Positions 1-43,750 are shown, numbered from the stretch's first letter. The stretch: DNA of 50,349 bases from Casimicrobiaceae bacterium (GCA_050742615.1 JBOIGD010000105.1:1-50349); one strand, 5' to 3'. Numbers and translations are program-made. Notes: generated from the letters alone by a model not told the origin.

Positions 1-158
1 CGATTGCCGTCGCGCCGCGCGTCGAGGCCGAATGACCGGTAAAACGCCTCGGCGGGTGCCAGATCCGGAACCGTGAACACGAAACAGTTCAGCGAGTGGA
101 CGCCCAGCGCATTGGGACGCCGTTGCATCGTCGGTTGGCCACTCGCGACCGTTTCCAT
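1..158 (-). CDS. VOC (glyoxalase/bleomycin-resistance/extradiol dioxygenase) family protein, 5' part only; the gene continues past the left edge
   Basis: The reverse complement reads METVASGQPTMQRRPNALGVHSLNCFVFTVPDLAPAEAFYRSFGLDARRDGN..., an opening typical of VOC-fold proteins. GGAGG (complement of 166-170) lies 7 nt upstream of the ATG at 158. Absent from the ORF track because it is truncated by the window edge. Confidence 0.5.
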   Translation of the reverse strand, partial: METVASGQPTMQRRPNALGVHSLNCFVFTVPDLAPAEAFYRSFGLDARRDGN

Positions 159-378
159 GATCATCCTCCAGACGGGGCCGAAGTGCCTGGCCCGACACGA
201 CGATAGCAAATTTCCGGCGTAGGCGCCCATGGTGCCCCGACCGCGGCCTCGGCCGTGATTTTCGCGGCATTTGAGGCCAGACCAGGACCCACTAGTGGCG
301 GATTGACGCCTAATATTCCGTCGGTTAGTTTCCCTACCTTTCAGTCAGGCAGTTGCCGCCCCTTGGAAAGGATCCGTC

Positions 379-1527
379 ATGAAGCGCAGCACCGACAGGT
401 TTCTGACGACCCACACAGGCAGTCTACCGCGCCCCGAAGATCTTATCAGGATGATGTACGCCAAGGAGGAAGGCGTGCCGGTCGACGCCGCCGCGCTCTC
501 GCAGCGAGTGGCCGCTGCGGTCGACGAGGTTGTCCACAAGCAGGCGGCAGTGGGTGTCGATGTGATCAACGACGGTGAGATGAGCAAGCCGAGCTATGCG
601 ACGTACATCAAGGATCGATTGAGCGGATTCGGCGGCACCGGCAACACGTTCGTGTATCAGGACCTGACCGACTTCCCCAACCTCGCCAGGCGCGTGTTCG
701 GCGATCCGGGGCGTTCACGTCGAAAGACGCCCGCGTGCAATGCGACGATCGGTGTGCGTGATCCGCAGGCGGCGCAGGCCGATGTCGACCATTTGAAGGC
801 CGCGTTTGCCAACATTGAAGCACAGGAAGCGTTCATGACGGCGGCCTCACCCGGAGTGGTTTCGCTGTTTTTTCGCAATGAGCACTACCCGACCGAGGAA
901 GCGTACCTGTTCGCGATCGCGGAGGCCATGAGGCACGAGTACGAGACGATTGCCGGAGCCGGCTTCATCCTGCAGATCGACTGCCCTGATCTCGGGATGG
1001 GACGGCATATTCAGCATGCCGACTTGACTCTTGCGGAGTGGCGCAAGAAGGCGCAGCTACACGTGGAGGCCCTCGACCATGCCGTCGCGAATATTCCGCC
1101 CGAACAGCTGCGCATGCACCTCTGCTGGGGCAATTACGAAGGGCCGCATCACTGCGACGTCCCCTTGGCCGACGTGATCGACGTCGTGTTCCGTGCGCGG
1201 CCGAGCGCCATCGCGATCGAAGCCGCCAACCCCCGCCACGCGCACGAATGGAAGCTGTTCGAGACAGTCAAGCTGCCCGACGGCAAGCTGCTCATTCCCG
1301 GCGTGATCGAATCGAAATCGAACTTCATCGAGCATCCCGAGCTCATCGCGCAACGCCTCGGCCGTTACGCGAAGCTTGTCGGCCGGGAAAATGTGATCGC
1401 CGGAAGCGACTGCGGCTTCGGCACATGGGTCGGACAGGCCGCGGTCGATCCCGATGTCGTATGGGCGAAGATGGCCGCAATGGCCGAGGGTGCGCGCATC
1501 GCGTCACGCGAGTTCTGGAAGCACTGA
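379..1527 (+). CDS. Cobalamin-independent methionine synthase C-terminal-domain-like (Meth_synt_2 fold) methyltransferase family protein
   Basis: 382-aa ORF. It has RFLTTHTGSLPRPEDL near the N terminus, NDGEMSKPSY, HLCWGNY and a C-terminal AGSDCGFG Zn-ligand-type region, as in the MetE catalytic domain. GGAAAGGA at 365-372 is a plausible RBS. It is too short to be a two-domain MetE. Confidence 0.75.
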   Translation: MKRSTDRFLTTHTGSLPRPEDLIRMMYAKEEGVPVDAAALSQRVAAAVDEVVHKQAAVGVDVINDGEMSKPSYATYIKDRLSGFGGTGNTFVYQDLTDFPNLARRVFGDPGRSRRKTPACNATIGVRDPQAAQADVDHLKAAFANIEAQEAFMTAASPGVVSLFFRNEHYPTEEAYLFAIAEAMRHEYETIAGAGFILQIDCPDLGMGRHIQHADLTLAEWRKKAQLHVEALDHAVANIPPEQLRMHLCWGNYEGPHHCDVPLADVIDVVFRARPSAIAIEAANPRHAHEWKLFETVKLPDGKLLIPGVIESKSNFIEHPELIAQRLGRYAKLVGRENVIAGSDCGFGTWVGQAAVDPDVVWAKMAAMAEGARIASREFWKH

Positions 1528-1554
1528 AGCGCGCGCGGGCCGCAGGCTGCTTAG

Positions 1555-2523
1555 TCACAGAATCTGGTTGCGCAGCGTCGCTTCACCCTTCCACAGGCGC
1601 TGGAGGTTGTCCTCCAGGACGTCCAGGACATTGTCCTCGTAACGCCGCGTCTCACCGGCGGTGTGCGGCGTGATGAACGTGTTGGGCAAGTCCCACAGCG
1701 CTGAGGTGCCCGGTAGCGGATCCTCCGGTGTCACGTCAATGCCGACGCCGGCGATGCCGCCGGAGCGCATTGTCGCGATCAGCGCCGCCTCGTTGACCAC
1801 CTTGCCGCGCGCGGTATTGATCAGGTAGGCCGATTTCTTCATCCGGCCCAGCGCGTCGGCGTCGATCAGATTTTCCGTGTCCTTGGTCAGGGGGCAGGTC
1901 AACGCGACGATGTCAGCCTGCGGCAGAAGCGATTTCAGCTCGGCGACGGCGTGAACGCTGTCGGCGGCACCCTTGCCGGCGGCCGGGTCGCGCCGCACAC
2001 CGATCACATGCATGTCGAAAGCCTTGGCCAGCTGCGCCAGCCGCCCGCCGATATTGCCCAGGCCCACGATCACGAGGGTCTTGCCGCCCAGCTCGTCTTC
2101 GCGCTGCGTCAGGTCGCCGATCATGCCGCGCCAGTAATGCTTGCGCTGGTTGTCGCGCGCCTCCGGGAGGCGCCGCGCCAGCGCCAGGATCAGCGCCATC
2201 GCGTGTTCGGACACCGCCTTCACATTGACGCCGCTGGCGCTCGCCAGGCGGATGCCCTTTGCTGCCAGCACGTCGCGCCCGAACTGATCGGTACCGGCGC
2301 CGATCGACTGGACGAAGCGCAATCTGGGTGCCTTTTCCACCAGGTCGTTGCGCCATAGACCGGAGATCACCAGCACGTCGGCTTCGCCCACGCGGGCGTC
2401 CAGCTCGTCGCGGTTCCAGACCTGGAAGCTGTTGATGCCGGTCTTGCGCTTCGCGAACTGCGGCATGAAGCCGTAGGCGACGTGGGCGAAACAGACGGTC
2501 AGCTTGTCTTTCGGCGGGATCAT
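1555..2523 (-). CDS. D-isomer-specific 2-hydroxyacid dehydrogenase (NAD-binding)
   Basis: 322-aa ORF with the Rossmann motif GLGNIGGRLAQLAKAFDMHVIGVRR and the catalytic-region motifs INTARG and ITPHTAG. Confidence 0.85.
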   Translation of the reverse strand: MIPPKDKLTVCFAHVAYGFMPQFAKRKTGINSFQVWNRDELDARVGEADVLVISGLWRNDLVEKAPRLRFVQSIGAGTDQFGRDVLAAKGIRLASASGVNVKAVSEHAMALILALARRLPEARDNQRKHYWRGMIGDLTQREDELGGKTLVIVGLGNIGGRLAQLAKAFDMHVIGVRRDPAAGKGAADSVHAVAELKSLLPQADIVALTCPLTKDTENLIDADALGRMKKSAYLINTARGKVVNEAALIATMRSGGIAGVGIDVTPEDPLPGTSALWDLPNTFITPHTAGETRRYEDNVLDVLEDNLQRLWKGEATLRNQIL

Positions 2524-6287: not shown

Positions 6288-7666
6288 TCGTCATCGGCGC
6301 GGGTCCCGCCGGCATGGCAGCCGCCATCGAAGCGGCGGCGCGTGGCTGCGACGTTACCGTCGTCGATGAATCGGCGAGGCCGGGTGGCCAGATCTATCGC
6401 CAAGCCGATTCCCGTCTCGAGGGCAGCGAGTTCGCCGAGCCGACCGAACGGGCGCGCAAGAAGCGGCTGTTGCATCGGTTCGATCAGGCAGTCCGAGGCA
6501 TGGACTATCGCGCCGGCACGGTCGCGTACGCGGCCTTCGACAACGGCGAGATCCAGGTGACGGTTGGAGATCGCACCGAGGCCTTGAAGCCCGCAGCGGT
6601 GATCCTCGCGACCGGCATGCGCGAGCGTGCGATTGCGTTCCCGGGATGGACGCTACCCGGCGTCATGTTCGCCGGCGGCGCGCAGGCCATCCTCAAGTCA
6701 CAGCGCGTTGCTCCCGGGAAGATCGCGGTCGTGGCGGGATGCGGCCCGCTGCCGATCGTGGTGGCGTCGCAACTGACGCGCGCAGGGGTCGCGGTCGCGG
6801 CCTTGGCGAGTCTGCGCTCGCCGCAGGCGATGCTGCGGCACCCGGGCGGCTTGTGGCACGGGCGCGACGTCATGCGCGAGGGCCTGCGCTACGAATGGAC
6901 GCTGCTCCGTGCCCGAGTTCCGCGCTTGACCGGCTTCGTTCCGATACGTGCACTGGGCAGCGAGCGGCTCGAAGCCGTGCAACTGGCGCGCGTCGACGCA
7001 CGCGGGCAGGTGGTATCCGGGACCGTGCGCGAGATCGCCTGCGACCTGCTGGCGATCAACTACGGCTTCGTTGCCAACGGGGAGCTGGCAGCGATGGCGG
7101 GCGCCCGCATGCGGCACGATCCCGACGCCGGGTTCTGGCTGCCCGAGTCCGACGAGGAAGGCCGCACGTCTCTGCCGTGGCTCTACGCTGCCGGCGATAT
7201 GGCCGGCCTTCGGGGCGCGCTGATTGCCGAAAGCGAGGGAACGATCGTTGGCGCCGCCGCGGCGGGCGCGGCACGAACGGCAGCCGCATCCGTTGCGTTG
7301 AGCGAGGCCATCGCAGCGCGACGGCGATATGGCGCATTCCAGCGCGTGGTGCGCGAGACACTGAGGGTCCCGTCGGCGCTGTGGCGCGCCACCACGGACG
7401 AGACCGTCGTATGCCGTTGCGAAAACGTGCGGTTCTCGGAGATTCGCGGCGCGCTCGACAATGGCCACCAGTCGCTCAACGCCATCAAGCGCAACACGCG
7501 TGCCGGTATGGGGTGGTGTGGCGGGCGCATGTGCCTGCATTCGGTCGCTGCGCTGGCCGAACTGCACGCCGGCATCGCACCCGCGAACATGATGACGCCT
7601 CGCCCGCTGGCGCGCCCCGTCGCGTTTGCGGCACTGGCGCAGCAGAAGCGCACCGCGGCGCCATGA
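6272..7666 (+). CDS. FAD/NAD(P)-binding oxidoreductase subunit (HcnB / opine oxidase subunit A-like)
   Basis: The ATG at 6272 gives MRRSVVVIGAGPAGMAAAIEAAARGCDVTVVDE (dinucleotide-binding GxGxxG...D/E). There is a later Cys-rich segment, VVCRCENVRF...GMGWCGGRMC. The first 40 codons of the track ORF (from 6152) overlap the 2Fe-2S gene and are Arg-rich noise. Confidence 0.85.
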   Translation: MRRSVVVIGAGPAGMAAAIEAAARGCDVTVVDESARPGGQIYRQADSRLEGSEFAEPTERARKKRLLHRFDQAVRGMDYRAGTVAYAAFDNGEIQVTVGDRTEALKPAAVILATGMRERAIAFPGWTLPGVMFAGGAQAILKSQRVAPGKIAVVAGCGPLPIVVASQLTRAGVAVAALASLRSPQAMLRHPGGLWHGRDVMREGLRYEWTLLRARVPRLTGFVPIRALGSERLEAVQLARVDARGQVVSGTVREIACDLLAINYGFVANGELAAMAGARMRHDPDAGFWLPESDEEGRTSLPWLYAAGDMAGLRGALIAESEGTIVGAAAAGAARTAAASVALSEAIAARRRYGAFQRVVRETLRVPSALWRATTDETVVCRCENVRFSEIRGALDNGHQSLNAIKRNTRAGMGWCGGRMCLHSVAALAELHAGIAPANMMTPRPLARPVAFAALAQQKRTAAP

Positions 7667-8811
7667 CGACGCATACCACGGATGTGCTGATCGTTGGCGC
7701 GGGACTCTATGGGCTGTCCTGCGCCTGGTGGATGGCACGCCGCCGGTCCGGCGCACGCATCATGGTCGTCGACGAGGGCGAATTCGCGAACGGCGCATCG
7801 GGCCGCAACGGGGCGGGATTCCGGATGCAGTGGGGCCTCGATCTCAATATCCAGCTGAGCCAGGAGAGCACCGCGTTTTTCGAGAAGGCCGCGGAACTGC
7901 TCGACTATCCACGCGGCATCGAGTTGAAGCAGGACGGGTACCTGGTTCTGGCACACAGCCAGAAGGCGTTATCCAAGCTCAACGACAGCATCGCGACCCA
8001 GCACCGGTATCAGGTGCCGAGCGAATTGCTGGATGCCGACGAGTGCATGAAGATGGTGCCGGCCCTGGGACGGGAGCGTCTCGTGGGGGGCACGTACTGC
8101 GCCAAGGATGGCAGTGCGTCGCCCTTCCGCCTGCTCGACGCGCTGCTGATTGCGTCCCGCCGCGACCGGGTTGACGTTCGCTACGGCACCCGGGTCGAGC
8201 GGATCGAGAAGCGCAACGGGGTATTTACGGCGTCGATCAAGGACGGGACGATCGAAGCCGACCGGGTGCTGCTGTGCACCGATTGGGCGGTGCCGCAACT
8301 GCTGCGGCCGTTTGGCGTCGATCTGCCGGTGTCCAGCTTGCCGAAGGAGGTCATCGTCACCGTTCCCTGCACGCCACGCGTGAAGCCGATCCTGATCGCG
8401 CTGGAACACAAGATGTCCGTCAACCAGGTCACGCGCGGATCGATCATCTTCGTGGTTTCGCGCGCGCGTGAAGGCTCGACTGTGGCCTCGACGCCCGAGT
8501 TCCTGGGCTGGGCTGCGCCGAAGGTCGTCGACCTCCTGCCAGGCGTTGCCGATGTCGCGGTTCTGCGCACCTGGGGCGGGGTGTCGAGCGTCACTCCGGA
8601 CATGCAGCCGATTCTTGGGCGGTCGGGGGTCGACGGGCTTTTCGTGGCGGTATCTTCGTACCGCGGCCTCATGACCTCGCCCGCGGTCGGGCGCATGATG
8701 TCGGCTCTGGTGCTGGACGGCGTCTCCGACGATCCCGTCCTGTCCCAGCTGGCGCCCCATCGGTTCGAGACCGGCAGCCTGATCGTTGAACCCCTGCTGA
8801 ACCAGGAATGA
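7663..8811 (+). CDS. FAD-dependent oxidoreductase subunit (HcnC / opine oxidase subunit B / sarcosine-oxidase-beta-like, DAO family)
   Basis: The ATG at 7663 overlaps the upstream stop (ATGA) and gives MTTHTTDVLIVGAGLYGLSCAWWMARR. The 339 codons upstream in the track ORF (6646-7662) are an off-frame overlap with the previous gene. Confidence 0.85.
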   Translation: MTTHTTDVLIVGAGLYGLSCAWWMARRRSGARIMVVDEGEFANGASGRNGAGFRMQWGLDLNIQLSQESTAFFEKAAELLDYPRGIELKQDGYLVLAHSQKALSKLNDSIATQHRYQVPSELLDADECMKMVPALGRERLVGGTYCAKDGSASPFRLLDALLIASRRDRVDVRYGTRVERIEKRNGVFTASIKDGTIEADRVLLCTDWAVPQLLRPFGVDLPVSSLPKEVIVTVPCTPRVKPILIALEHKMSVNQVTRGSIIFVVSRAREGSTVASTPEFLGWAAPKVVDLLPGVADVAVLRTWGGVSSVTPDMQPILGRSGVDGLFVAVSSYRGLMTSPAVGRMMSALVLDGVSDDPVLSQLAPHRFETGSLIVEPLLNQE

Positions 8812-8938
8812 TCGCATCGCGTCCGGTCGCCCGCCGGGCCGCCTCGATCAATCCGGCGCCTTTTCGTCCGGCTCGTGAAGCGCTGCCGGCTTGTCGTCGG
8901 AAGCCGGCACGGTAATCATTTCCCAGGCGAAACTGCGC

Positions 8939-9958
8939 ATGAACTTCTGCAGCGACAACATCAGCGGCGTCCATCCGCGCATCCTCGAAGCCCTAATCGC
9001 GGGCAACGGAGGCGACGTCATGCCCTATGGTGCCGACCCTTACACCCAGCGGGCGGAAGCGCGTTTATGCGCCGTTTTCGAGCGCGACCACGCGGTCGCC
9101 ATGGTGCCGACAGGTACCGCGGCCAACGCCCTGGCGCTTAGCATCCTCGCCTCGCCGATCTCGGCGATCTTCTGCCGGTCCGGCGCACACCTGCAGGACA
9201 ACGAAGCGGGCGCGTCGTTGATGTACACCGGCGGCGCCCGGCTCGTCAGCATCGACGGCAGGAACGGCCTGATCGACCCGGGAGACCTGGATCGCGCGCT
9301 AGCCGGCTTCGATCCGGGGCGCACGTTGTCCCAGCCCGCCGCGGTCAGCGTCACCCAGGCGAGCGAATTCGGCACCGTCTACAGCTTGCAGCATCTTCGC
9401 GACATCGCCGACGTCTGCCGGCGCCATGGCGTTCGCTTGCATATGGACGGCGCGCGGTTTGCCAATGCGCTGGCGCACCTCGGCTGCCAGCCGGCGGAGA
9501 TGAGCTGGCGGGCCGGCGTCGATGTGCTGTCGTTCGGCGCCACGAAAAACGGTGCCATGGCCGCGGACGCGGTCCTGGTCTTCGACCCGGCGCTCGCCGC
9601 CGGCCTGCGCATGCGGCAAAAGCGCGGCGGGCTGATCTTGTCCAAGCACCGCTTCCTGAGCATCCAGTTGGACGCCTACCTCACCGACGGCCTGTGGCTG
9701 GAGCTGGCACGCGCTGCCAACGCGCGCGCGGCGGAGCTAGCAGGGGGATTGGCGCGCTGCGGGCACGCAGAAATCCTCCATCCGGTCGAGGCGAACGAAG
9801 TCTTCGTCCGGCTTCCCGAAAGCACGCTCGCCAGCCTGGAGGCCAAAGGCTTCCAGTTCTACCGCCGGGGCGGCGGAATGATCCGGCTGGTCACCGCTTG
9901 TACCACCTCGCCGGGAGACGTCGCGTCGTTCGTCGCGGCCGTTGCCGAAAGCACTTAG
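8939..9958 (+). CDS. ltaE: Low-specificity L-threonine aldolase (PLP-dependent, Beta_elim_lyase family)
   Basis: MNFCSDNISGVHPRILEAL...YGADPYT...MVPTGTAANALAL...SFGATKNG (PLP lysine region). ATG at 8939; the track start (TTG at 8891) is an upstream alternative. Confidence 0.8.
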   Translation: MNFCSDNISGVHPRILEALIAGNGGDVMPYGADPYTQRAEARLCAVFERDHAVAMVPTGTAANALALSILASPISAIFCRSGAHLQDNEAGASLMYTGGARLVSIDGRNGLIDPGDLDRALAGFDPGRTLSQPAAVSVTQASEFGTVYSLQHLRDIADVCRRHGVRLHMDGARFANALAHLGCQPAEMSWRAGVDVLSFGATKNGAMAADAVLVFDPALAAGLRMRQKRGGLILSKHRFLSIQLDAYLTDGLWLELARAANARAAELAGGLARCGHAEILHPVEANEVFVRLPESTLASLEAKGFQFYRRGGGMIRLVTACTTSPGDVASFVAAVAEST

Positions 9959-10277
9959 CGCGGAGCAGCACAGCCGATCGCGAAGAAGCGTAAGGTTGCG
10001 CTTGCAACGGCCTCGCCATTTTCGTAAACCATCCCCAGTTTGAACTGATCGCCGACATCCCCTGGTCGGCCGCCTTGCGAAACCAGGCTACCGCCTGCGC
10101 GTAGTCCTTCTGCACGCCATTGCACTTGGCGTATATCAGTTCCAGGTCGTACTGAGCCGTCACTTCTCCCTGCGTCGCCGCTTTTTGAAACAACGCAACT
10201 GCCATTTTGTCGTCCCGCTTCGCGCCATCGCCCGTTGCATACATCACGCCCAGTTCGAGTTGGGCTTCCGAAACCAT
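9955..10277 (-). pseudogene. Sel1-repeat (TPR-like) protein remnant, N-terminally truncated and frameshifted
   Basis: The track ORF 9891-10277 reads EAQLELGVMYATGDGAKRDDKMAVALFQKAATQGEVTAQYDLELIYAKCNGVQKDYAQAVAWFRKAADQG, then loses the repeat pattern. Shifting one base near 10060 restores DVGDQFKLGMVYENGE... and ends at a TAA (9955-9957). There is no signal peptide and it starts mid-repeat. Confidence 0.5.
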
Positions 10278-10461
10278 GCCCTGACCTGTGTTTTCGACTC
10301 GGTCACGGTTCTATCCCGCGTAAACCCATAGGCCATAGTCGGCCATAGGGGTATCGTAGCGTCGTGTCTCTTACTGCGATAGTCGCGCAAGGCTCAAAGC
10401 ACTGTTTGTGGCGGGCCGTGCTCCGATCTGCTACCGGATACCCTCGACGTTTCGGGCAACG

Positions 10462-13032
10462 ATGATTCAACCCATTGAGGGGATGCCGACCAGACGGGAC
10501 GCGAAAAATTCGCTGCCCCGCACATTGGTGGGTCGAAATGAACCTTGCCCCTGCGACAGCGGTAGTCGCTATAAGCAGTGTTGTGGCAGGCTGACCTCCG
10601 ACACGCTATCGCCACCCTTCCAGTCATTCGACGCAATCATGGACCGAGCCCTGACGGCACAGCGGTCCGGGCGCCTGGAATCGGCCGAAGAATTTTACCG
10701 GGAAGCGCTGAATATGCAGCCCAAGCATCCCGACGCACTACATATGCTGGGGGTCGTCCTATACAGCCAATGCCGATATCGGGAGTCAGCGCCGCTAATC
10801 CGCTCGGCAGGCGAACTGACCTCGTGGAAACTGCCTGGCGTGTTGCACAATTATGGCTTGGTATTGGGAGTCCGATTGAGTGGGCGGGATGTCGAACGTC
10901 GCGCCCGCGTCAGGCTCGAATATCGGCTATGGTCGGCCGAATGCGCGGTGATGCGTACCATGCAGGAGCCGCTCGTGAGCGTCGTCGTGCCCTCCTATAA
11001 CCATGCCGCCTACATCGAGGAGGCCCTGCACTCGGTATTTGCCCAAACCTACCGTGATCTGGAACTGATCGTGATCGATGATGGCTCCCTTGACGCTTCT
11101 CCCGACATCATTCGCAAAAAACTGCTTGACTGCCCTTTCCCACACCGCTTCATCGCGCGCGACAACCGGGGCGCGCATAGCACGCTGAACGAAGCGATCA
11201 TGCTGGCGAAGGGGATGTACATCAATCCCCTTAATTCCGATGATCGCTTCGAGCCCTCGCGCATGGAGGAGATGGTCGCCGCTATCTCCCGCGCCGGCTA
11301 TGAGTGGGGTTTCTCAAGATGTGCCTGTATCGACTCCATCGGCGCCAGGATTGCCAGCGGCAGTGACCCGCTGATCAAGGACATCACGGGCATCGAGGAA
11401 ATGATCCTGAGTGCCGATACCGTAGGTACCGCGTTTGTTGGGCACAATGTCGCCACCTCCACAAGCAACCTGTTTTTTTCCAGGGATCTGTTCATTCGCC
11501 TCGCCGGCTTCAACGCCTTCTACTCGAACCACGACTGGGATTTCTGCCTACGCGCGCTTTGGCTTGCCGAGCCCTGTTTCGTGCCAGCTGACCTGCTCCA
11601 ATACCGATTGCATGGCACGAATACTATCCGGGAGTCGACGCAGCGAAACAAGTCCGAAGCCGATCAGCTAATCGCCGATTTTCACAGACGCGCGCTATCC
11701 GAGGAACCCGGCAATCCTTTCGCGCCGAGTCGGCGCACGACGGGCATCGGCTATATCGCAACGGGACTGAGGAAAGGCCACGGCGTCGCACTGGAACCCT
11801 CGACACTAAAGAGCCTCGATGACGAACTAAACCTACTGGACGAGCAGAACAGGACGCGATCCGAGCAAACGTCGCCGAATGGCCTGAGCATTGTCGGTTA
11901 TTTCAGCGGCGAGTTCGGGCTCGCGGAGAGCGTGCGCGCGTTGGCCTCCACCTGCCTTCGGCGGGGCATTGCCGCCTCGTTCCGTGACGCCGAATTAGAG
12001 TTAGGATCGCGGCAAGCCAACCGCGTCATGGACAATATGCTCTCTGAGCGCATGCCCTACAAGCCCGTTTTGTTCTACCTCAATCCGGACGCGCTTGCTT
12101 CGGTGTTGCTTCGGCTCAAAGAGCGTGGCGAGCTCGAGAATAGGTACGTGATCGGCTACTGGTACTGGGAAATAGACGCCTTCCCTAGGAAATGGGAGAA
12201 AGCGCTCGGCATGGTCGATGAGATCTGGGTCGCCACCGATTTTGTCTTGAACATCGTCAAGCGCGCCACGACAAGACCGGTCATCAAGATTCCGCACGCG
12301 GTGGATATCACGCTGCCGCGCGACTATCGTCGTTCCGAATTCTCTCTGCCCGAAGACAGGTTCATCTTTCTGTTCACGTTCGATTTCGGATCCTATGCGG
12401 AGCGAAAAAACCCGCAGGCGGTGGTCGAGGCATTCACCCGCGCCTTCGGGAGCCAAGACAGCCGGGTCGGGCTCGTGGTTAAGTGCTCCCAAGGGCACAA
12501 ATTTCCGGAAAAGCTCGATGGTTTGCTTGGCCTAGCCAGAGACGATCCACGCATCGTCATCTTGGACAAACTGCTGTCCAGGGAAGATGTCTACGGTTTA
12601 CAGAGCGTATGCGACGCCTATGTCTCACTGCATCGCGCGGAAGGTCTCGGCCTTGGCATGGCCGAATGCATGGCACAGGGCAAGCCGGTCATTGGTACTG
12701 CCTACTCGGGGAATATGGAATTCATGAATGTCGACAACAGTTGCCTTGTCGATTACCGCCTGATCCCGCTCAGGCCCGGCCAATTCATCGATTACGAGCC
12801 TGGCTGGCAGTGGGCGGACGCGGATATCGACCAGGCGGCGGGCTATATGCGCCGACTCGTCGAAGATCCGAAATACAGGAACCGGATCGCCGATCGAGCA
12901 GCATCGGATATGGCTGGCCAGTATAACCATGCCGCGGTTGGCCGCGCTATCAAACATCGCCTTGCCGAATTGGAGCGACTGCAATTTGTTCACGTTCCCG
13001 GGCAGGAATTGACAACCGAAAATTCCAATTAG
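10462..13032 (+). CDS. Multidomain glycosyltransferase: N-terminal SEC-C zinc motif, TPR, GT2 domain, C-terminal GT4/GT1-type domain
   Basis: The SEC-C motif CPCDSGSRYKQCCG lies at nt 10546-10587. TPR-like segment: AEEFYREALNMQPKHPDALHMLGVVLY. GT2 signature: VSVVVPSYNHAAYIEEALHSVFAQTYRDLELIVIDDGS. GT-B C-terminal signature: AYVSLHRAEGLGLGMAECMAQGKPVIGTAYSGNMEFM. Start ATG at 10462, or GTG at 10408 as in the track. Confidence 0.8.
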   Translation: MIQPIEGMPTRRDAKNSLPRTLVGRNEPCPCDSGSRYKQCCGRLTSDTLSPPFQSFDAIMDRALTAQRSGRLESAEEFYREALNMQPKHPDALHMLGVVLYSQCRYRESAPLIRSAGELTSWKLPGVLHNYGLVLGVRLSGRDVERRARVRLEYRLWSAECAVMRTMQEPLVSVVVPSYNHAAYIEEALHSVFAQTYRDLELIVIDDGSLDASPDIIRKKLLDCPFPHRFIARDNRGAHSTLNEAIMLAKGMYINPLNSDDRFEPSRMEEMVAAISRAGYEWGFSRCACIDSIGARIASGSDPLIKDITGIEEMILSADTVGTAFVGHNVATSTSNLFFSRDLFIRLAGFNAFYSNHDWDFCLRALWLAEPCFVPADLLQYRLHGTNTIRESTQRNKSEADQLIADFHRRALSEEPGNPFAPSRRTTGIGYIATGLRKGHGVALEPSTLKSLDDELNLLDEQNRTRSEQTSPNGLSIVGYFSGEFGLAESVRALASTCLRRGIAASFRDAELELGSRQANRVMDNMLSERMPYKPVLFYLNPDALASVLLRLKERGELENRYVIGYWYWEIDAFPRKWEKALGMVDEIWVATDFVLNIVKRATTRPVIKIPHAVDITLPRDYRRSEFSLPEDRFIFLFTFDFGSYAERKNPQAVVEAFTRAFGSQDSRVGLVVKCSQGHKFPEKLDGLLGLARDDPRIVILDKLLSREDVYGLQSVCDAYVSLHRAEGLGLGMAECMAQGKPVIGTAYSGNMEFMNVDNSCLVDYRLIPLRPGQFIDYEPGWQWADADIDQAAGYMRRLVEDPKYRNRIADRAASDMAGQYNHAAVGRAIKHRLAELERLQFVHVPGQELTTENSN

Positions 13033-13085
13033 CACAAGTCCCGTCTTTCGAATTGTGAAATCCGGGCCGCCACCCCTGTCCAAAC

Positions 13086-13769
13086 ATGATTAACCGCAAC
13101 GGCCTTTGCACATGCGGTAGCGGCAAGCGCTACAAACACTGTTGCGGTGCGATATTAGCGGATTCGCATTCGATCCCTCCGAACAACGGTGTGCCGCTCA
13201 AGGTAAGGAAGACATTTGTCGTCTTGGGCTCTCCGCGAGGTGGCACCTCCTTGATCGCAGGAGCACTGCACTACGCAGGCGTGTACATGGGTGACTTCCG
13301 CACCACCCAGTATGAAGCTCCCGACTTCAAGATACGGCCCACTGAGGCGCACGACGCCGTTGGGCGACTGCGCGAGATAATTGCCCGCAGAAATGAAGAT
13401 CATTCATTCTGGGGCTGGAAGGTTCCAAACAGCATTTACTACATTCGAAGCATCGTGCACCTGCTCCGTGACCCGGTTTTCATGTTCGTGTATCGCGACG
13501 TTCTGGAGATCGCACGCTCCTCGGCCAAACACGACAACAAGGATTGGGACGTGGAGGGGCCGAAACTGATCGACGTTGCCAAGAACCACACCGGCAGAGT
13601 TCAGGAATTTCAGGCGTCGCTACGAAAGCCGCACCACGTGTTTCAATTGGCCGAAATTCATTCCGACCCCGAGAGGTTCGTCGCCGCCCTGGTCGAGATC
13701 ATCCAACCTCTGCAAGCCGATCCTGCACCCATTCTTCGATTCGTGGACCGTTACGGCGGATACCACTGA
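13086..13769 (+). CDS. Sulfotransferase-family protein with N-terminal SEC-C zinc motif
   Basis: MINRNGLCTCGSGKRYKHCCG (motif at nt 13107-13148). This is followed by a PAPS-loop-like VVLGSPRGGTSLIAGAL, then FWGWKVPNS...VFMFVYRDVLEIARS. These match the 5'-PSB and 3'-PB regions and align by eye with the sulfotransferase at 33629-34639. Confidence 0.65.
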   Translation: MINRNGLCTCGSGKRYKHCCGAILADSHSIPPNNGVPLKVRKTFVVLGSPRGGTSLIAGALHYAGVYMGDFRTTQYEAPDFKIRPTEAHDAVGRLREIIARRNEDHSFWGWKVPNSIYYIRSIVHLLRDPVFMFVYRDVLEIARSSAKHDNKDWDVEGPKLIDVAKNHTGRVQEFQASLRKPHHVFQLAEIHSDPERFVAALVEIIQPLQADPAPILRFVDRYGGYH

Positions 13770-13943
13770 GGAACTAGTGGCCGGCCCATCGCATGGCCGT
13801 CATCGGCAACGAAGCCGGTCCGCACGTTCATTGGGCCGGCGGAGGAGTTGCCGCCGATGAAGGGCACGAAGACGACTTTGCAGCCGCTGCACGGCTTGAT
13901 TCCAAGACCATTCGCCTACGAAGATCGCGTACCTGAATCGGTC

Positions 13944-14050
13944 GCCGGGGCGGCGGAGCTATCCGCCCGGTCACCGCTTGTACGACCTCGCCGGAAGACG
14001 TCGCGTCGTTCGCCGAAGCCGTTGGGGAAAGCACTTGGACGGGAGAAGCG
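13944..14050 (+). pseudogene. Diverged duplicate of the 3' end of the threonine aldolase gene (relic/recombination scar)
   Basis: Ungapped alignment to 9863-9969 at a constant offset of 4081 nt, with 90 of 107 positions identical by hand count. It translates to RGGGAIRPVTACTTSPEDVASFAEAVGESTW, against RRGGGMIRLVTACTTSPGDVASFVAAVAEST* in the intact gene. There is no upstream aldolase sequence. Confidence 0.75.
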
Positions 14051-14098
14051 AAGCGAGACACTCTGCCTACGTGCCGCGAATATTGCAGCGTTCGGCAT

Positions 14099-33628: not shown

Positions 33629-34639
33629 TCATCCATCGCTGCCGCCCCGCCGCGAAAGGCGCCGGCGCCACGACGCGAGCAGCGTTCCCTTGCGCCGGCG
33701 GTCAAGCAGATCGTCGGCGAAACGCGAGTAGCGGACGGAGGGGCGCGGCCGCTCGGGGTCGCGCTCGAGGTAGCCGAAGCTCAGGAGCTCGGGCTTCGCG
33801 ATCTCGACGACCTCCTGCAACGCCCGCGCCGGCGCGCGCCGGTGCTTGCCGAGCGAGGTCAGCCGCACGAGCGGGGCGACACGCGATATGGCCCCCGCCG
33901 GATCCGGGGCGCCGGCGAAGCGGAGCACCCGCTCGGCGGTCGCGGCGAAGTCCGCGCATAGGTCCTCGTAGCGGACTTCCAGATAGCGCTCGCCAAGCAT
34001 CGATCCGTACGCGCGTCCCACGCGGACGGCATTGCTCCAGTGCACGGCGTTGTAGAGATGGCTGCGCCGCCGGTACGACGGCCCCGTGAGCCGCAGGCCG
34101 CGCCAGGTCGCGATCCGGTCGGTGTCGAAGTAGACCTTGCGCCAGAACGGATCGTCGGGCGCGCGGTGGTCGCAGAACGCGACGTCCCGCCCGTCGCGCA
34201 CCAAGTGCACGACGCGCAGACGGCGGAAGAGTCGCACGAGGATTGGCAGCGCGTACCCGCTCTCGCAAACCTTCCAGCCCCAGGGCGCCGTCGACGTCCG
34301 GTCGAAGCCCTCAAGATGCGCATCGAAGCATTCGCGCGCGCGCCGGCCCACGTCGCGGGTGGCACACCCGGCCGAGCGGAGCCTTGCGTAGTCCGGGTAG
34401 TAGCATCGCACCAGATGCTCGATCAGCGCGAGCACGTCGAGCGAGTCCTCAGACTCGTTGCGGTGTGCGCCCATGAAGATCCCGGCCTCGGTGAGGAGGA
34501 GCGCGAGCAGGCGGCTTCCCGAGTGCGACTTGTTATAGACGATCACCGGCCCGCTCAGCCCGGCGTACGCATCGCTGACGGCATCCAGCGTCGTCTCGTC
34601 GTTCCCAATCATGGCTATATCGAATGGCCGGTCGCGCAC
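33629..34639 (-). CDS. Sulfotransferase-family protein
   Basis: PAPS-loop-like VIVYNKSHSGSRLLALLL, PWGWKVCESGYALPILVRLFRRLRVVHLVRDGRDVAF (3'-PB-type RDxRDV), and a C-terminal YLEVRYEDL. It is homologous by eye to 13086-13769. Start GTG at 34639 or ATG at 34612. Confidence 0.7.
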   Translation of the reverse strand: MRDRPFDIAMIGNDETTLDAVSDAYAGLSGPVIVYNKSHSGSRLLALLLTEAGIFMGAHRNESEDSLDVLALIEHLVRCYYPDYARLRSAGCATRDVGRRARECFDAHLEGFDRTSTAPWGWKVCESGYALPILVRLFRRLRVVHLVRDGRDVAFCDHRAPDDPFWRKVYFDTDRIATWRGLRLTGPSYRRRSHLYNAVHWSNAVRVGRAYGSMLGERYLEVRYEDLCADFAATAERVLRFAGAPDPAGAISRVAPLVRLTSLGKHRRAPARALQEVVEIAKPELLSFGYLERDPERPRPSVRYSRFADDLLDRRRKGTLLASWRRRLSRRGGSDG

Positions 34640-34669
34640 TCTGGGCCGAGGCCGGGATTAGAATGGGTC

Positions 34670-35923
34670 ATGCAGGATCCCGCTTCCCGAACAGACTATC
34701 ATGCGCCCTCCGGCCCGCTCGCGCGGCGGCGCCTGGGAGCCGGCAAGGCGGCCGCGGCACGCTTCGCCGTCCAGCGCTTCGGGTTCGGCGGTCGGCGCGC
34801 GAGGATGTCCGTGTGGTTCCACGGCGCGAGCGACGCGCAGTTCGATGCGGCGGCCGGCGTTGTCCGCGCCGTCATGGGCGGCCGCGGCGACCTTGCGCTC
34901 GTCGTGACGGCGCGCGACGCCGCCGTGGTCGAGGTGCTACGCCGAAGGTTCCCCGACGATCTCGCGCTCGCCGCACCTTGTGGCAAAGGGGGCAGCATCG
35001 CGCGGTTTCTCGCCCGCGTGCGTCCGTGCGCGCTCGTTCTTCTCGACGATGGCCGCGGCCTTGATCCGGCGGCCCTCGCGCGGCTGCGCGCGTCGCCGCT
35101 GCCCATCGTCGCGATGGGTGACGGTGCAGGCGCTGCAGCGGCAATCGGCGCGCTGTCCGCGTCGCTGCGCGACCTTCCTCCGGCCGTGCCAGCGGGCGCG
35201 CTGGTGGGACCGGCGTGGCAGGTGCCGACGCTGCGCGACCGGGTGGGGCAGAGCCGATCGTGGAAGGCCGTGGCGCCGCTCCTTATGCTTCGCCGCATCG
35301 ACGGCTGGGAGCGTCTTCGCGAGCGCCTCTCGCGGCCGCGCTCCGTGCTCTGCCTGGGCAACGGCCCGTCGTCGGAGGATCCGCAGTTGGCGGCGGTCGG
35401 GCACGACTGTCTCATCCGGGTGAACTGGCGCTGGCGGGAGCGCGGATTTTTGGTCCGACCGAACATCGTCTTCGTTGGCGACGCGGCCACGATCCATAAG
35501 GCGCCGCCGTGCATCTTCGGCTTGTGGAGCGTGAATCTCGAGCACGCGATGCTGTTGCGGCATCTGGTCACGCACGGCCCCATCGCGATGGAGTATTTCA
35601 CCGCCGAACGGCTTTCGCCGCTGGCCGCGGAGCAGCGCTGGCAGGTGCGGCCAAGCAACGGCGCGCTCGCGATCGTCACGGCCGCGGCGCTCGCGCCGGA
35701 GCGCCTGATCATCGGTGGCATGGACCTCTTCCGGCATCCCGACGGCCGCTATCCGGGCGAAGGCAGGTCGCGCAACGAATACTCCACGGCGCACAAGCTC
35801 GAGACCGAGCTTGCCATCATTGATCTCGCGCTTCGCAACTTCCGCGGCGAAGTCGTCATCCTCAGCGGAATCCTGCGCGACCATCTCGAACACTACCGCG
35901 AGAGCACGCGTCGTGTTGCCTGA
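34670..35923 (+). CDS. Chimeric glycosyltransferase: Kdo-transferase N-terminal-domain-like region fused to a CstII/GT42-like (sialyltransferase-type) domain
   Basis: The N half, RFAVQRFGFGG...VWFHGASDAQFDAA...LVVTARD...FPDDLALAAPCGKGGSIARFLARVRPCALVLLDD...LPIVAM, parallels WaaA RWGERYGF...HSVSVGE...VTTMT...YLPYD...RFL...P.LVLIME. The C half, VLCLGNGPSSED...DCLIRVNWRW, RPSNGALAIVTAAALAPERLIIGGMDLF and YSTAHKLETELAIIDLAL, parallels CstII AGNGPSLKE...DVFRCNQFY, ITSGVYMCAVAIALGYKEIYLSGIDFY and IGHSKNTDIKALEFL. The track ORF upstream of 34670 is antisense to the sulfotransferase. Confidence 0.6.
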   Translation: MQDPASRTDYHAPSGPLARRRLGAGKAAAARFAVQRFGFGGRRARMSVWFHGASDAQFDAAAGVVRAVMGGRGDLALVVTARDAAVVEVLRRRFPDDLALAAPCGKGGSIARFLARVRPCALVLLDDGRGLDPAALARLRASPLPIVAMGDGAGAAAAIGALSASLRDLPPAVPAGALVGPAWQVPTLRDRVGQSRSWKAVAPLLMLRRIDGWERLRERLSRPRSVLCLGNGPSSEDPQLAAVGHDCLIRVNWRWRERGFLVRPNIVFVGDAATIHKAPPCIFGLWSVNLEHAMLLRHLVTHGPIAMEYFTAERLSPLAAEQRWQVRPSNGALAIVTAAALAPERLIIGGMDLFRHPDGRYPGEGRSRNEYSTAHKLETELAIIDLALRNFRGEVVILSGILRDHLEHYRESTRRVA

Positions 35924-36983
35924 CGCCATCTTCGGGGACGTTCCGCCGCGCAGGATACTCGCCGTCAAGCTGGGCTCGTTCGGCGACATCGTGCAGACGA
36001 CGGCGAGCCTGCGGGCGCTGCGGCGCGCATTTCCTGCCGCCGACATCCGCGTTGCCGTCGAGCGGCGCTGGGCACCACTGCTCGCTGCCTGCCCCGACGT
36101 GAACGGCGTCCTCGAAGCGTCGTCCCGCCAGCGGCTCACGCCGAGCCACGTCTGGGAGGTGCGGCGCCTGCTTGCTGAGGCTTGCCGCCGACCGGGACCT
36201 TTCGACCTCGCCCTGGACTTCCAGGGAACGCGACGGAGCGCCGCGTGGGTCTATCTGAGCGGCGCCCGCGTCAAGGCCGGCAGGGGGAAGCCCCGCCCCG
36301 GCTGGCGCGCGGCCATCGCAATGGACCGCACGCGCCACGCCGTGCGCGGGTACGCCGACGTCTGCGAGTGCATCGGGATCGCGGCCGGCGACCTCGACCC
36401 GGCACTGTACACGTCGCCCGACGACGAAGCGCGGATCGAGGCGATCCTCGACGGCGCGCGGCTTCCGCGCAGCGGATTCGTGCTGCTCAACCCGTTCAGC
36501 GTGTGGCCTTCGAAGAGCTGGGATGAGCGTCGCGCTGCGGAACTCGCGTCGCAGGTGGCGAGCGTGACACGCGCGGCCGTCGTCGTGACCGGCGGGGACA
36601 ACGAGAGCGCCCGCGCCGCCGACGTCGTCCGCCTTGCCCGCCATGGAAGCGTGTCGTCGCTCGCGGGCCGGCTCTCTCTCGGCGAGGCGCTGTGCCTGTT
36701 CCGGCGCGCGCGCCTCATGATCTCCTGCGATTCGGGTCCGATGCATGCGGCGGCTGCCCTGGGAACCCCGGTCGTCGCGCTCTTCGGCCCGACACTCCCC
36801 GAGCACACGGGGCCGTGGGGACCGGGGCACAGGGTCGTGCAGGCATCGCGGCCGCCCGATCATCATGCGTATCGGCGGGACCACGGGCGGCAGCACATGG
36901 GGGCGCTTGGCGTGCAGGCGGTTGCCGATGCCGTCCAGGGGGCCATGCGCGCGACCGCCGCGGCCGCGGCAACGCCGCGATGA
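35913..36983 (+). CDS. Glycosyltransferase family 9 (heptosyltransferase-like)
   Basis: RRILAVKLGSFGDIVQTTASLRALRRAFPAADIRVAVERRWAPLLAACPDVNGVLE, and a C-terminal LMISCDSGPMHAAAALGTPVVALFGPT. The GTG at 35913 overlaps the upstream gene by 11 nt. Confidence 0.85.
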   Translation: MLPDAIFGDVPPRRILAVKLGSFGDIVQTTASLRALRRAFPAADIRVAVERRWAPLLAACPDVNGVLEASSRQRLTPSHVWEVRRLLAEACRRPGPFDLALDFQGTRRSAAWVYLSGARVKAGRGKPRPGWRAAIAMDRTRHAVRGYADVCECIGIAAGDLDPALYTSPDDEARIEAILDGARLPRSGFVLLNPFSVWPSKSWDERRAAELASQVASVTRAAVVVTGGDNESARAADVVRLARHGSVSSLAGRLSLGEALCLFRRARLMISCDSGPMHAAAALGTPVVALFGPTLPEHTGPWGPGHRVVQASRPPDHHAYRRDHGRQHMGALGVQAVADAVQGAMRATAAAAATPR

Positions 36984-39228: not shown

Positions 39229-39259
39229 TCGCCGTCCGGACGCTTTCGCACATGCCGAC

Positions 39260-40243
39260 ATGCTGAAGACAGCGCGACGAATATTGGTCACCGGAGCCGG
39301 CGGATTCATCGGCTCGCACCTCGTCGAGTCACTCGTCGAGCGCGGCTGCCGGGTGCGCGCCATGGTCCGGTACACGTCCGGTGGCGGGCGGGGGTGGCTC
39401 GATGACGTACCCGCCGCCGCCGATGTCGAGTTCGCGGCCGGCGACGTGCGCGATCACGACACGGTGCTGGCGGCGATGACCGGGTGCGACGTCGTGTTTC
39501 ACCTGGCCGCGCTGATCGGGATTCCCTACTCGTACGTCTCTCCGCTCGCCTACGTGCGGACGAACGTCGATGGCATGCTCAACGTACTCGAAGCGGCCCG
39601 GGCGCTCGGCGTGGCCCGGGTCGTCGTGACCTCGACGAGCGAAGTCTACGGGACCGCGCAGTACTGCCCGATGGACGAAGCGCATCCGGTGCATTGCCAG
39701 TCACCGTACGCGGCGAGCAAGGCGGGCGCGGACCAGCTGGCCATAAGCTATCACCGCTCGTTCGGCCTGCCGGTCGCCATCGCCCGTCCGTTCAACGTCT
39801 ACGGGCCGCGCCAGTCGGACCGCGCGCTGATCCCGACGATCGCGACGCAACTCCTGGCGGGCGGCCCTGTCCGCCTCGGCAACGCCAGTCCCACCCGCGA
39901 CTTCACCTACGTCGTGGACACCGTTCGCGCCCTTGCCGCGGTTGCCAGCGCCGAGCACCTCATCGGCGAGGCTGCGAACATCGGCAGCGGCAACGAGATA
40001 TCCGTCGGCGCGCTGGCGAAACTGGTCGGCGAAGTTGCCGGCCGCGAAACGACGATCGCAAGCGACGACGACCGCGCGCGCCCGGGCACCAGCGAGGTCG
40101 AGCGCCTGTGCTGCGACAGCACGAAGCTGCGCTCGCTGACGGGATGGCGCCCCGCGACCCCGCTGGAGGACGGTCTGCGCCGGACGCTCGAGTGGATCGA
40201 GCCGCGCCTCGCGCGCTTCCGGATCGGTGAATACCGCGTGTGA
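39260..40243 (+). CDS. NAD-dependent epimerase/dehydratase (extended SDR, sugar-nucleotide 4,6-dehydratase-like)
   Basis: ILVTGAGGFIGSHLVESL (GxxGxxG), STSEVYG, and YAASKAGAD (YxxxK). Confidence 0.85.
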   Translation: MLKTARRILVTGAGGFIGSHLVESLVERGCRVRAMVRYTSGGGRGWLDDVPAAADVEFAAGDVRDHDTVLAAMTGCDVVFHLAALIGIPYSYVSPLAYVRTNVDGMLNVLEAARALGVARVVVTSTSEVYGTAQYCPMDEAHPVHCQSPYAASKAGADQLAISYHRSFGLPVAIARPFNVYGPRQSDRALIPTIATQLLAGGPVRLGNASPTRDFTYVVDTVRALAAVASAEHLIGEAANIGSGNEISVGALAKLVGEVAGRETTIASDDDRARPGTSEVERLCCDSTKLRSLTGWRPATPLEDGLRRTLEWIEPRLARFRIGEYRV

Positions 40244-40246
40244 CAC

Positions 40247-43725: not shown

Positions 43726-43750
43726 TCGACGCCCCACCGGCGCGCGGCCC

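Follow-up and report, generated by a model that had tools for sequence, protein, structure and literature searches.

SecA-type SEC-C motifs at the N termini of an adjacent glycosyltransferase and sulfotransferase: a candidate shared docking tag

Background

The SecA-type metal-binding domain (MBD), represented in Pfam by the SEC-C family (PF02810), is a small knuckle that has been studied so far on SecA, YecA and YchJ. The MBD of SecA coordinates zinc, and probably iron in vivo, through the ligand spacing CxCx8C(H/C) together with a conserved serine; it binds SecB and ribosomes, it autoinhibits SecA, the phospholipid that co-purifies with SecA is lost when the cysteines of the MBD are mutated, and a SecA-like MBD is also carried by the methionine aminopeptidases of many bacteria (bioRxiv 10.1101/613315). 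YchJ is described as a redox-sensitive regulator in a 2026 paper (PMC13377102). The present work concerns a stretch of DNA of 50,349 nucleotides (nt) from a Casimicrobiaceae bacterium (GCA_050742615.1, JBOIGD010000105.1:1-50349), analysed as a whole and referred to below as the window, in which two adjacent open reading frames, ORF1 and ORF2, encode a predicted glycosyltransferase and a predicted sulfotransferase that both begin with a motif of this kind.

The two motifs resemble the MBDs of SecA, YecA and YchJ in their CxCx8C(C/H) spacing, their serine and aromatic residues, the preceding G/x-R-N and the basic K/R-Y-K, but differ from them in being N-terminal (or internal, in some relatives) and in the proteins that bear them, which are carbohydrate-modifying enzymes and not a translocase or a chaperone. 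The methionine aminopeptidases provide a precedent for an enzyme that uses SEC-C, presumably in order to reach the ribosome; they belong to another catalytic class, however, and neither glycan enzymes nor a tagged two-enzyme operon have been described in that setting.

The catalytic parts of the two proteins also have described counterparts. The best matches to the first transferase domain of ORF1, which has the GT-A fold, are the chondroitin polymerase K4CP (2z86) and the heparosan polymerase PmHS2 (8vh7), found both by sequence (4e-20) and by Foldseek, which like ORF1 hold two transferase domains in one soluble polypeptide; ORF1 differs from them in that it pairs the GT-A domain with a GT4-like GT-B domain, adds a tetratricopeptide repeat (TPR) array and SEC-C, shows only about 25% identity at the domain level, and has no capsule export genes beside it. 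Cps3D of Actinobacillus pleuropneumoniae (8qoy) likewise combines a TPR array with two transferase domains, the array acting as a scaffold and dimerisation element in a membrane-facing machine, but its transferase domains are GT-B and TagF-like, it has neither SEC-C nor a link to sulfation, and its gene lies in a capsule locus of group 2 that includes an ABC transporter (PMC11666461). The best structural matches to ORF2 are Stf0 (a trehalose sulfotransferase), STF9 and TPST1/2, with which it has a loop of the GxPR(S/G)GT(T/S) type in common; the core of ORF2 is nevertheless only about 187 amino acids (aa) long, as against 250-300, has 12-18% identity to the solved structures, and bears a SEC-C tag in addition.

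A conceptual precedent for bringing such enzymes together is found in the E. coli O9a O-antigen system, where WbdD recruits the soluble polymerase WbdA to the membrane by means of an amphipathic helix and a coiled coil, so that soluble glycosyltransferases and a chain-modifying enzyme are joined at the inner membrane. That system has no metal knuckle and no sequence relationship to the present one, and ABC transporter genes are adjacent there. Each domain of ORF1 and ORF2 belongs to a known family. For the architecture, a SecA-type MBD tethered to both the glycosyltransferase and the sulfotransferase of one operon, full-text searches of the literature gave no published description.

The paired motifs and their translation

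ORF1 (positions 10462-13032, plus strand) encodes 856 aa when read from its ATG, rather than the 857 aa counted in an earlier note on this DNA, and a GTG at 10408 is an alternative start that would extend the protein to 874 aa; its predicted product is a soluble multidomain glycosyltransferase. ORF2 (13086-13769, plus strand), which follows in the same orientation after a spacing of 53 nt, encodes a predicted minimal sulfotransferase of 227 aa. The earlier note had placed a SEC-C motif at both N termini and had fitted both motifs to the consensus CxCxSGx(K/R)YKxCCG, and these claims are borne out in position and in sequence. The motif of ORF1, RNEPCPCDSGSRYKQCCG, lies at 10534-10587 on the plus strand (aa 25-42) and that of ORF2, RNGLCTCGSGKRYKHCCG, at 13095-13148 on the plus strand (aa 4-21), and the scores against PF02810 are 27.9 bits (aa 25-43) and 27.4 bits (aa 4-21) respectively, compared with a curated Pfam cutoff of 20.4. 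A strict form of the motif, defined by the regular expression C.C.S[GS]..[YFW]..C[CH], occurs at exactly two sites in the six frames of the 50-kb window and at none in 300 shuffles.

The relationship of the two motifs (the tags, below) to SecA is close. The best sequence matches to both stretches in the PDB are C-terminal peptides of SecA (1ozb, 1tm6, 1sx0) and YchJ, the profile of the ORF2 family matches the SecA peptide 1ozb with an E value of 1e-5, and the tags are identical to the structurally solved SecA peptides at 14-15 of 19 residues. The CxCx8C(H/C) ligand spacing is present along with the conserved serine and the aromatic residue (CPCDSGSRYKQCC, CTCGSGKRYKHCC), and the basic K/R-Y-K residues of the SecA MBDs are retained in both tags. 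The placement is not the extreme C-terminal one of SecA and YecA, since the motifs occupy aa 25-42 of 856 and aa 4-21 of 227, and in both proteins the flexible linker is found on the C-terminal side of SEC-C, unlike in the SecA/YecA tail. Neither ORF1 nor ORF2 contains a transmembrane-like segment, so that both are likely to be soluble enzymes with a tethered N-terminal knuckle.

The gene calls that accompany the source sequence begin 3' of both motifs, giving a protein of 797 aa for ORF1 (P0026) and one of 160 aa for ORF2 (P0003), and translation of the motifs is a point on which the earlier note had made its own proposal depend. When the 18 codons of the motifs in the window are compared with those of homologous loci, there are 6-9 synonymous and 3-6 non-synonymous differences, and the cysteine, serine, glycine and aromatic positions show no change. 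Judged by these codons, the motif peptides are under purifying selection, and because synonymous changes dominate in the homologues it is concluded that the motifs are translated and that translation does not start downstream of them. The 160-aa call for ORF2 starts at Met68 and thereby drops the invariant loop G48-x-x-R-G-G-T-S55, while the ORF1 homologue of locus L001 is also called late (P0027, 791 aa) with the motif RNAPCPCGSGRRHKNCCG kept in frame upstream of the called start (L001 74-241). The shorter starts of the source (window 10462-10640 and 13086-13286) were accordingly rejected as wrong, on the grounds of the lost loop, the conserved in-frame motif and the bias towards synonymous change. 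In ORF2 the ATG at 13086 is the sole start codon between the in-frame stop at 13056 and the motif, and no clear Shine-Dalgarno sequence precedes it. Since gene callers repeatedly start past the motif, database counts of SEC-C-tagged enzymes are underestimates.

Domain structure of the two enzymes

The structure of ORF1 was modelled with AlphaFold2 from an alignment of 32 sequences (predicted local distance difference test, pLDDT, 88.9; predicted template modelling score 0.83). In the model a disordered N-terminal linker (aa 1-21, pLDDT <50) is followed by the small SEC-C knuckle (aa 22-41, pLDDT about 67), a second disordered linker (aa 42-51, pLDDT <50) and a TPR-like array of six helices (10627-10950, aa 56-163), in which Pfam detects TPR_2 at aa 58-89 (29.0 bits, cutoff 27). 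The GT-A domain, of family GT2 (10975-11700, aa 172-413), matches PF00535 at aa 173-280 with 83.6 bits (cutoff 23.3, E 2e-23), and its nucleotide-binding DDGS (aa 206) and DxD motif (SDD, aa 259) are intact. A helical connector (aa 424-467) leads to the GT-B domain, which is GT1/GT4-like (11884-12984, aa 475-841) and matches PF00534 at aa 629-814 with 39.7 bits (cutoff 26.4, E 5e-10); its EX7E motif, EGLGLGMAE (aa 727-735), has glutamates, E727 and E735, that are invariant in the 32 homologues. All of these features lie on the plus strand. The assignment of ORF1 as a glycosyltransferase, made in the earlier note, stands on the E values of PF00535 and PF00534, and the Pfam families which that note had proposed for checking in ORF1 (SEC-C, PF00535, PF00534 and TPR_2) all score above their cutoffs.

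Matches to the GT-A half in the PDB, by fold with Foldseek and by sequence, are K4CP chondroitin polymerase, PmHS2, WrtF and SpsA, and Foldseek matches to the GT-B half are a chlorovirus glycosyltransferase (3oy2), BshA and HepE. Multidomain Foldseek matches, with low template modelling (TM) scores, are to TPR-containing enzymes, among them Cps3D (8qoy) and SPINDLY, the latter being a low-TM match over the whole chain, and SdgB is also among the matches to ORF1. ORF1 is not a TPR-GT41 enzyme of the OGT/SPINDLY type, because its catalytic domains are GT2 and GT1/GT4 and its array has about three TPR-like helix pairs. By analogy, ORF1 is laid out like enzymes that either attach two different sugars or assemble a repeating disaccharide. 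The earlier note had also taken the TPR segment as a hint of a protein substrate, but this hint is weak: the TPR domains of bacterial capsule polymerases are dimerisation and scaffold elements (PMC11666461), which removes the segment as an argument for a protein substrate, and relatives of ORF1 carry domains of polysaccharide type.

The AlphaFold2 model of ORF2, built from 19 sequences (pLDDT 89.2), consists of the SEC-C knuckle region (aa 1-26), a flexible linker (13164-13205, plus strand, aa 27-40, with pLDDT <50 at aa 27-34) which differs in length and sequence from homologue to homologue, and a compact alpha/beta core (13206-13766, plus strand, aa 41-227), defined by the alignment of the family (alignment A1) and by Foldseek. 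The core contains the loop G48-x-x-R51-G-G-T-S55 (nt 13227-13250), in which G48, R51, G52, G53, T54 and S55 are invariant in the alignment (PRGGTS); E77, K112 and A143 are invariant and R137 nearly so, at positions that, as judged from the alignment, may be plausible for a 3'-phosphate-binding motif and a catalytic base. Pfam by itself would not have identified the enzyme, since PF13469 (Sulfotransfer_3) reaches 20.0 bits, below its cutoff of 27, although a precomputed match to this family exists for 16 of 25 close homologues. The fold matches of ORF2 in the PDB are almost exclusively sulfotransferases that use 3'-phosphoadenosine 5'-phosphosulfate (PAPS), headed in Foldseek by Stf0, STF9, TPST1/2, SULTs and the sulfotransferase of an olefin synthase (probability 1.0, TM 0.45-0.57). 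On the strength of the predicted fold and of the motifs, rather than of the Pfam threshold, ORF2 is assigned as a minimal PAPS-type sulfotransferase; the sulfotransferase assignment of the earlier note is upheld by the fold matches together with the invariant phosphosulfate-binding loop.

Conservation of the pair and of its tags

A neighbourhood search for a SEC-C glycosyltransferase beside a SEC-C sulfotransferase, as suggested in the earlier note, found the pair again, closely spaced like an operon, in eight or more further lineages from metagenomes, with ORF1- and ORF2-type genes adjoining and co-oriented in L001 (with L002 and L003), L004 (with L005), L006, L030/L038, L037 (where the ORF1 homologue is frameshifted), L051 and the contig of P0016 and P0043. 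The gaps between the two genes across loci are -4 (an ATGA overlap), 11, 12, 16, 53 and 73 nt. The flanking genes differ in every locus (peptidase S9/MarC; SIR2/BON; GreA/ZapA and a nonribosomal peptide synthetase, NRPS; EVE/TauE; adenosine 5'-phosphosulfate (APS) kinase), which argues that the two enzymes themselves form the conserved unit. In P0046 an ORF1-type and an ORF2-type protein are fused in frame, with the internal SEC-C, CSCGSGKRYEYCCG, kept; this fusion and the adjacency on many contigs answer the objection, raised in advance by the earlier note, that the genes might never be neighbours elsewhere. On the P0016 contig (JGI 3300075153) the pair is adjoined by a divergent APS kinase gene (1395-2018, minus strand) and a divergent unannotated gene of 466 aa (1-1398, minus strand). 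An APS kinase would help to supply PAPS, so that this neighbour lends indirect support to ORF2 being a PAPS-dependent sulfotransferase.

The distribution of the tag among sulfotransferases follows that of the partner. A word-indexed search defined a close ORF2 family of 25 clusters, 12 of which carry SEC-C, and most of these 12 adjoin a SEC-C glycosyltransferase. The close relatives without a tag come from Thiocapsa, Thiohalocapsa, Competibacteraceae, Saprospiraceae, Ahrensia and others; none of about ten such relatives has a full ORF1-type neighbour, and the tag-less Chthoniobacteraceae locus L016 has upstream a partial match that covers the connector and GT-B regions only. An exhaustive profile search returned 4842 representatives of the sulfotransferase-like domain family at E<=1e-3, and the SEC-C motif is present in none of the 145 representatives from outside the close family that are among the best 150 listed. 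Among the relatives checked, SEC-C in the sulfotransferase family is, as far as motif and gene neighbour can tell, confined to the clade that is partnered with SEC-C glycosyltransferases.

Several other features of these loci were observed. Many relatives of the ORF2 core (P0146, P0148, P0150-P0155) lack SEC-C and consist of two sulfotransferase-like domains fused in tandem (about 450-520 aa). An EVE-domain gene and a gene for a TauE/SafE-family transporter follow the sulfotransferase in L051 (4265-5617), and apparently do likewise in L009 (about 10.7-12.3 kb), where they were assigned by reading ORF translations only. A two-module NRPS (A-T-C-A-T-TE), orthologous and with 53-78% identity between loci, is located beside the SEC-C sulfotransferase in L006 (5358-11048, minus strand), L009 (1771-8604, minus), L029 (about 5-1813, minus) and L030 (8116-9399, minus), and a distant NRPS lies near a fusion of SEC-C, GT2 and sulfotransferase in L049 (18190-22169, plus).

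The wider family of tagged glycosyltransferases

Among the candidates scored, 254 relatives of ORF1 were found at E<=1e-3, and the strict motif is present in at least 83 of the best 120, a figure that is a lower bound because some of the gene calls are truncated at the N terminus. Where a source is named, it is Candidatus Nitrotoga, Gallionellaceae, Casimicrobiaceae or an uncultured betaproteobacterium, and the database labels are only "glycosyltransferase" or "hypothetical protein". The SEC-C-TPR-GT2 module is conserved and occurs widely, uncultured Betaproteobacteria being a group in which the family is widespread. In these relatives the module is joined to GT1, a second GT2, methyltransferase, pyruvyl-transferase, RgpF or sulfotransferase domains; P0095, P0119 and P0124 combine GT2 with one or two sulfotransferase domains of another subtype behind a single N-terminal SEC-C. 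The pyruvyl-transferase, methyltransferase and RgpF domains are typical of polysaccharide pathways. SEC-C is not always terminal, being internal in the Nitrotoga protein P0038, where a beta-propeller precedes it, and in pyruvyl-transferase relatives such as P0112.

Some loci contain more than one tagged enzyme. The L049 cluster encodes a SEC-C-GT2-sulfotransferase and a DUF5672-SEC-C-TPR protein, and the L050 cluster a SEC-C-TPR-GT2-GT2 and a DUF5672-SEC-C-TPR protein. In L050 (7210-13006) the tagged glycosyltransferase gene follows secA after 46 nt, with two methyltransferase genes and the DUF5672-SEC-C-TPR gene downstream; its tag, RRNQPCPCGSGLKYKHCCG, is close to the end of SecA from the same organism, GRNDPCPCGSGKKYKHCHG. 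A recent duplication of the 3' end of secA was considered as the source of this tag and was rejected, the nucleotide identity being 62%. An ABC2_membrane gene lies 9 kb from the tagged glycosyltransferase in L050, and there are five further places similar to L050.

Other members of the family have departed from the ORF1 layout. In P0062-P0087 (alignment A2) SEC-C ends in C-H, as it does in SecA, and SEC-C, TPR and an intact GT-B domain are retained, while the DDGS of the GT-A domain is lost and its DxD often so; from these losses the GT-A domain of this group is probably a pseudo-enzyme. P0291 (276 aa) and P0292 (289 aa) are stand-alone SEC-C and TPR proteins with no catalytic domain, which could be adaptors related to the N-terminal module of ORF1. 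A search with the SEC-C-TPR module only (aa 1-166) returned just two small SEC-C and TPR proteins.

Proposed docking of the two enzymes

The interpretation favoured here, which is given about an even chance of being right, is that SEC-C is a shared docking tag that brings ORF1 and ORF2 to one site, most likely at the inner membrane, either on its cytoplasmic face or on an acidic partner found at that face. The locus would be a horizontally inserted, self-contained operon of two genes, a mobile module for glycosylation followed by sulfation. ORF1 would act as a soluble bifunctional glycosyltransferase with its GT-A and GT-B domains mounted on a TPR scaffold, and ORF2 as a PAPS-dependent sulfotransferase acting on the product of ORF1. 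The knuckle, held on a flexible tether of 10-15 residues, would most likely coordinate zinc or iron through Cys-x-Cys...Cys-Cys and would serve as an address label common to both enzymes; what it docks on would most probably be the anionic lipid of the inner membrane on its cytoplasmic side, or an acidic protein there that both enzymes have as a partner. Docking of this kind would allow the glycan made by ORF1 to be sulfated by ORF2 without the intermediate diffusing off. Metal binding, docking, the docking site, the substrate (a glycolipid or polysaccharide rather than a protein) and the order of the reactions are steps that we infer.

Several lines of evidence suggest this interpretation. 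The AlphaFold2 models place each tag between low-confidence linkers, so that it is predicted to be tethered rather than packed on the body of the enzyme, and some recruitment device is plausible because neither protein has a transmembrane segment. Sequence comparison lends indirect support to a link between the tag and the two enzymes, because the tag is confined to the clade partnered with a glycosyltransferase and because other loci hold several SEC-C-tagged enzymes. Fusions of glycosyltransferase and sulfotransferase, the accessory domains of polysaccharide type and the neighbouring APS kinase gene point in the same direction, as does the loss of co-purifying phospholipid from SecA when its MBD cysteines are mutated (bioRxiv 10.1101/613315).

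A number of considerations weigh against it. Docking by the tag, its site included, is something that we purely infer, and the partners that have been characterised for SecA-type MBDs are SecB and the ribosome; the membrane as such is not among them (bioRxiv 10.1101/613315). Export, priming and sugar-nucleotide genes are absent beside the pair here and in most of the other loci. L009 and L029 have a tagged sulfotransferase without an ORF1-type neighbour, and in relatives of the Nitrotoga type a propeller domain precedes an internal SEC-C. Since the tagged sulfotransferases probably form a monophyletic clade, the correlation between tag and partner may represent a single evolutionary event. Finally, the tag may do more than co-localise the enzymes, because the fusion P0046 keeps its second SEC-C even though the enzymes are already joined.

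The main alternative takes the characterised partners at face value: the tag would dock on the exit-tunnel region of the ribosome or on SecB, by analogy with SecA, YecA and the SEC-C methionine aminopeptidases, and the enzymes would act on nascent or pre-secretory polypeptides held by the TPR array. This is unlikely, but it is not without attractions. The ribosome and SecB are the only partners of SecA-type MBDs characterised by experiment, the motif also occurs on methionine aminopeptidase, an enzyme of nascent chains, and the tags keep the basic K/R-Y-K that is missing from the N-terminal YchJ motif, which does not bind SecB (bioRxiv 10.1101/613315). The gene of one relative lies immediately behind secA (L050), and genes of the family are often found among housekeeping genes (dnaB with ribosomal proteins, minCDE, zapA), where genes for export are absent. 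The best structural matches to ORF2 include tyrosylprotein sulfotransferases, and the Foldseek matches to ORF1 include the protein glycosyltransferases SPINDLY and SdgB. Set against these points, the catalytic types of ORF1 are GT2 and GT4 and its best matches are polysaccharide polymerases, its relatives carry polysaccharide-tailoring domains (pyruvyl-transferase, RgpF, methyltransferase), the top structural match of ORF2 is Stf0, a sugar sulfotransferase, and no candidate substrate protein is conserved beside the pair. The broader form of the proposal, in which SEC-C is a portable tag for docking on the ribosome or SecB, serving a Sec-coupled glycosylation and sulfation of proteins that is co-translational or pre-translocational, must be regarded as improbable.

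If the tag has nothing to do with location, then it could be a regulatory or structural knuckle that senses metal or redox state, autoinhibits its enzyme or mediates oligomerisation, so that what the two enzymes have in common is regulation. Autoinhibition by the SecA MBD, together with its possible binding of iron (bioRxiv 10.1101/613315), and the description of YchJ as a redox-sensitive regulator (PMC13377102) are compatible with such a role, as are the second SEC-C retained in P0046 despite the fusion and the internal SEC-C of some relatives. The role is quite unlikely, however, given that the tags are placed on flexible tethers and are not predicted in the models to pack on the catalytic bodies, and that the sulfotransferase is tagged only when it is partnered with a SEC-C glycosyltransferase, for which co-localisation is a simpler explanation than independent regulation.

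The pair might also tailor a natural product, glycosylating and sulfating a nonribosomal peptide or a lipid, with the tag docking on a synthetase or carrier; the orthologous NRPS beside the tagged sulfotransferase in L006, L030, L009 and L029, and the distant one in L049, speak for this explanation. There is no NRPS, however, in the window, in L001, L004 or L051, or in the Nitrotoga locus; the loci that have one are probably close relatives with common synteny, and its position and orientation relative to the pair vary, which leaves this explanation very improbable. The last alternative, that the motifs are chance matches or untranslated leaders, as the late source calls (P0026, P0003) and the lack of a clear Shine-Dalgarno sequence before the ORF2 ATG might suggest, is essentially refuted by the shuffles, by the mainly synonymous conservation, by the PRGGTS loop that the 160-aa call deletes and by the same under-calling in L001 with the motif in frame.

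Whichever partner the tag may have, an MBD of the SecA type is found here as a selected, tethered appendage on two glycan-modifying enzymes of one operon, and the knuckle is thus a candidate for a general address tag of cytoplasmic enzymes. Should the docking be at the membrane or on a partner common to both enzymes, glycan-tailoring pathways would have a new and simple means of assembly, open to reuse in engineering; should it be on the ribosome or SecB, it would point to a Sec-coupled modification of proteins that is so far undescribed. The pair itself, compact, mobile and 3.3 kb long, is a candidate route to the sulfated glycans of bacteria, a rare class of biotechnological interest, and it is small enough for heterologous expression.

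Genomic setting

The pair lies in a segment of the window (about 9975-13942) with a content of guanine plus cytosine (GC) of 55-60%, compared with 64-70% on either side. This segment is bracketed by a direct repeat of 112 nt on the plus strand: the left copy (9863-9974) is the 3' end of an intact aldolase-like gene (8891-9958), and the right copy (13943-14054), which has 83% identity to it and translates to RRGGGAIRPVTACTTSPEDVASFAEAVGEST, is an orphan duplicate of about the last 31 codons of that gene and marks the far edge of the cassette. Also inside the cassette, and divergent from ORF1, is an ORF of 128 aa with Sel1 repeats (9891-10277, minus strand; Pfam Sel1, E 1e-16), which converges on the aldolase-like gene and shares about 68 nt with its 3' end. 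Because the low GC content coincides with the bracketing repeat, the Sel1 ORF, ORF1 and ORF2 are taken to have been brought in by a single 4.1-kb insertion into the end of the aldolase-like gene. This insertion signature agrees with how the pair behaves in other loci, namely as a mobile unit that is complete in itself. There is no integrase or transposase gene, nor a tRNA gene as a possible integration site. The Sel1 and aldolase-like genes were considered as further members of the module and were rejected, there being no homologue of either near the pair in other loci.

The flanks in the window are made up of genes for transport and catabolism, which encode a DAO-type oxidoreductase, a beta-eliminating lyase (threonine-aldolase-like), a TRAP transporter with a TAXI binding protein, an aminotransferase, PhyH dioxygenases and a Liv-type ABC system; no export, priming, sugar-nucleotide or PAPS genes are among the flanking genes of the pair. 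The pair is not set in an ABC-transporter-dependent polysaccharide locus, since its flanks in the window and in L001, L004, L006, L048 and L051 consist of unrelated transport and housekeeping genes. No sigma-70-like promoter and no excess of terminators was detected around the pair, and there are no Rfam matches in the window. An anti-phage defence role was considered and rejected, because the PADLOC matches are weak and all come from the SEC-C stretch.

About 20 kb from the pair there is a separate cluster of polysaccharide type (34040-49788), with an unusually high GC of 0.70-0.73, which encodes a protein with a Kdo-transferase-like domain, two GT4 and one GT1 glycosyltransferases, a polysaccharide deacetylase, an NTP_transf_5 protein and a fused ABC exporter; several of its ORFs (39701-40939, 43009-43965) have no Pfam match. 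In the ORF at 6646-8811 (plus strand, 721 aa) only aa 346-687 match the DAO-type oxidoreductase, which depends on flavin adenine dinucleotide (FAD); the arginine-rich first 340 or so residues are probably non-coding, with the true start near 7.66 kb.

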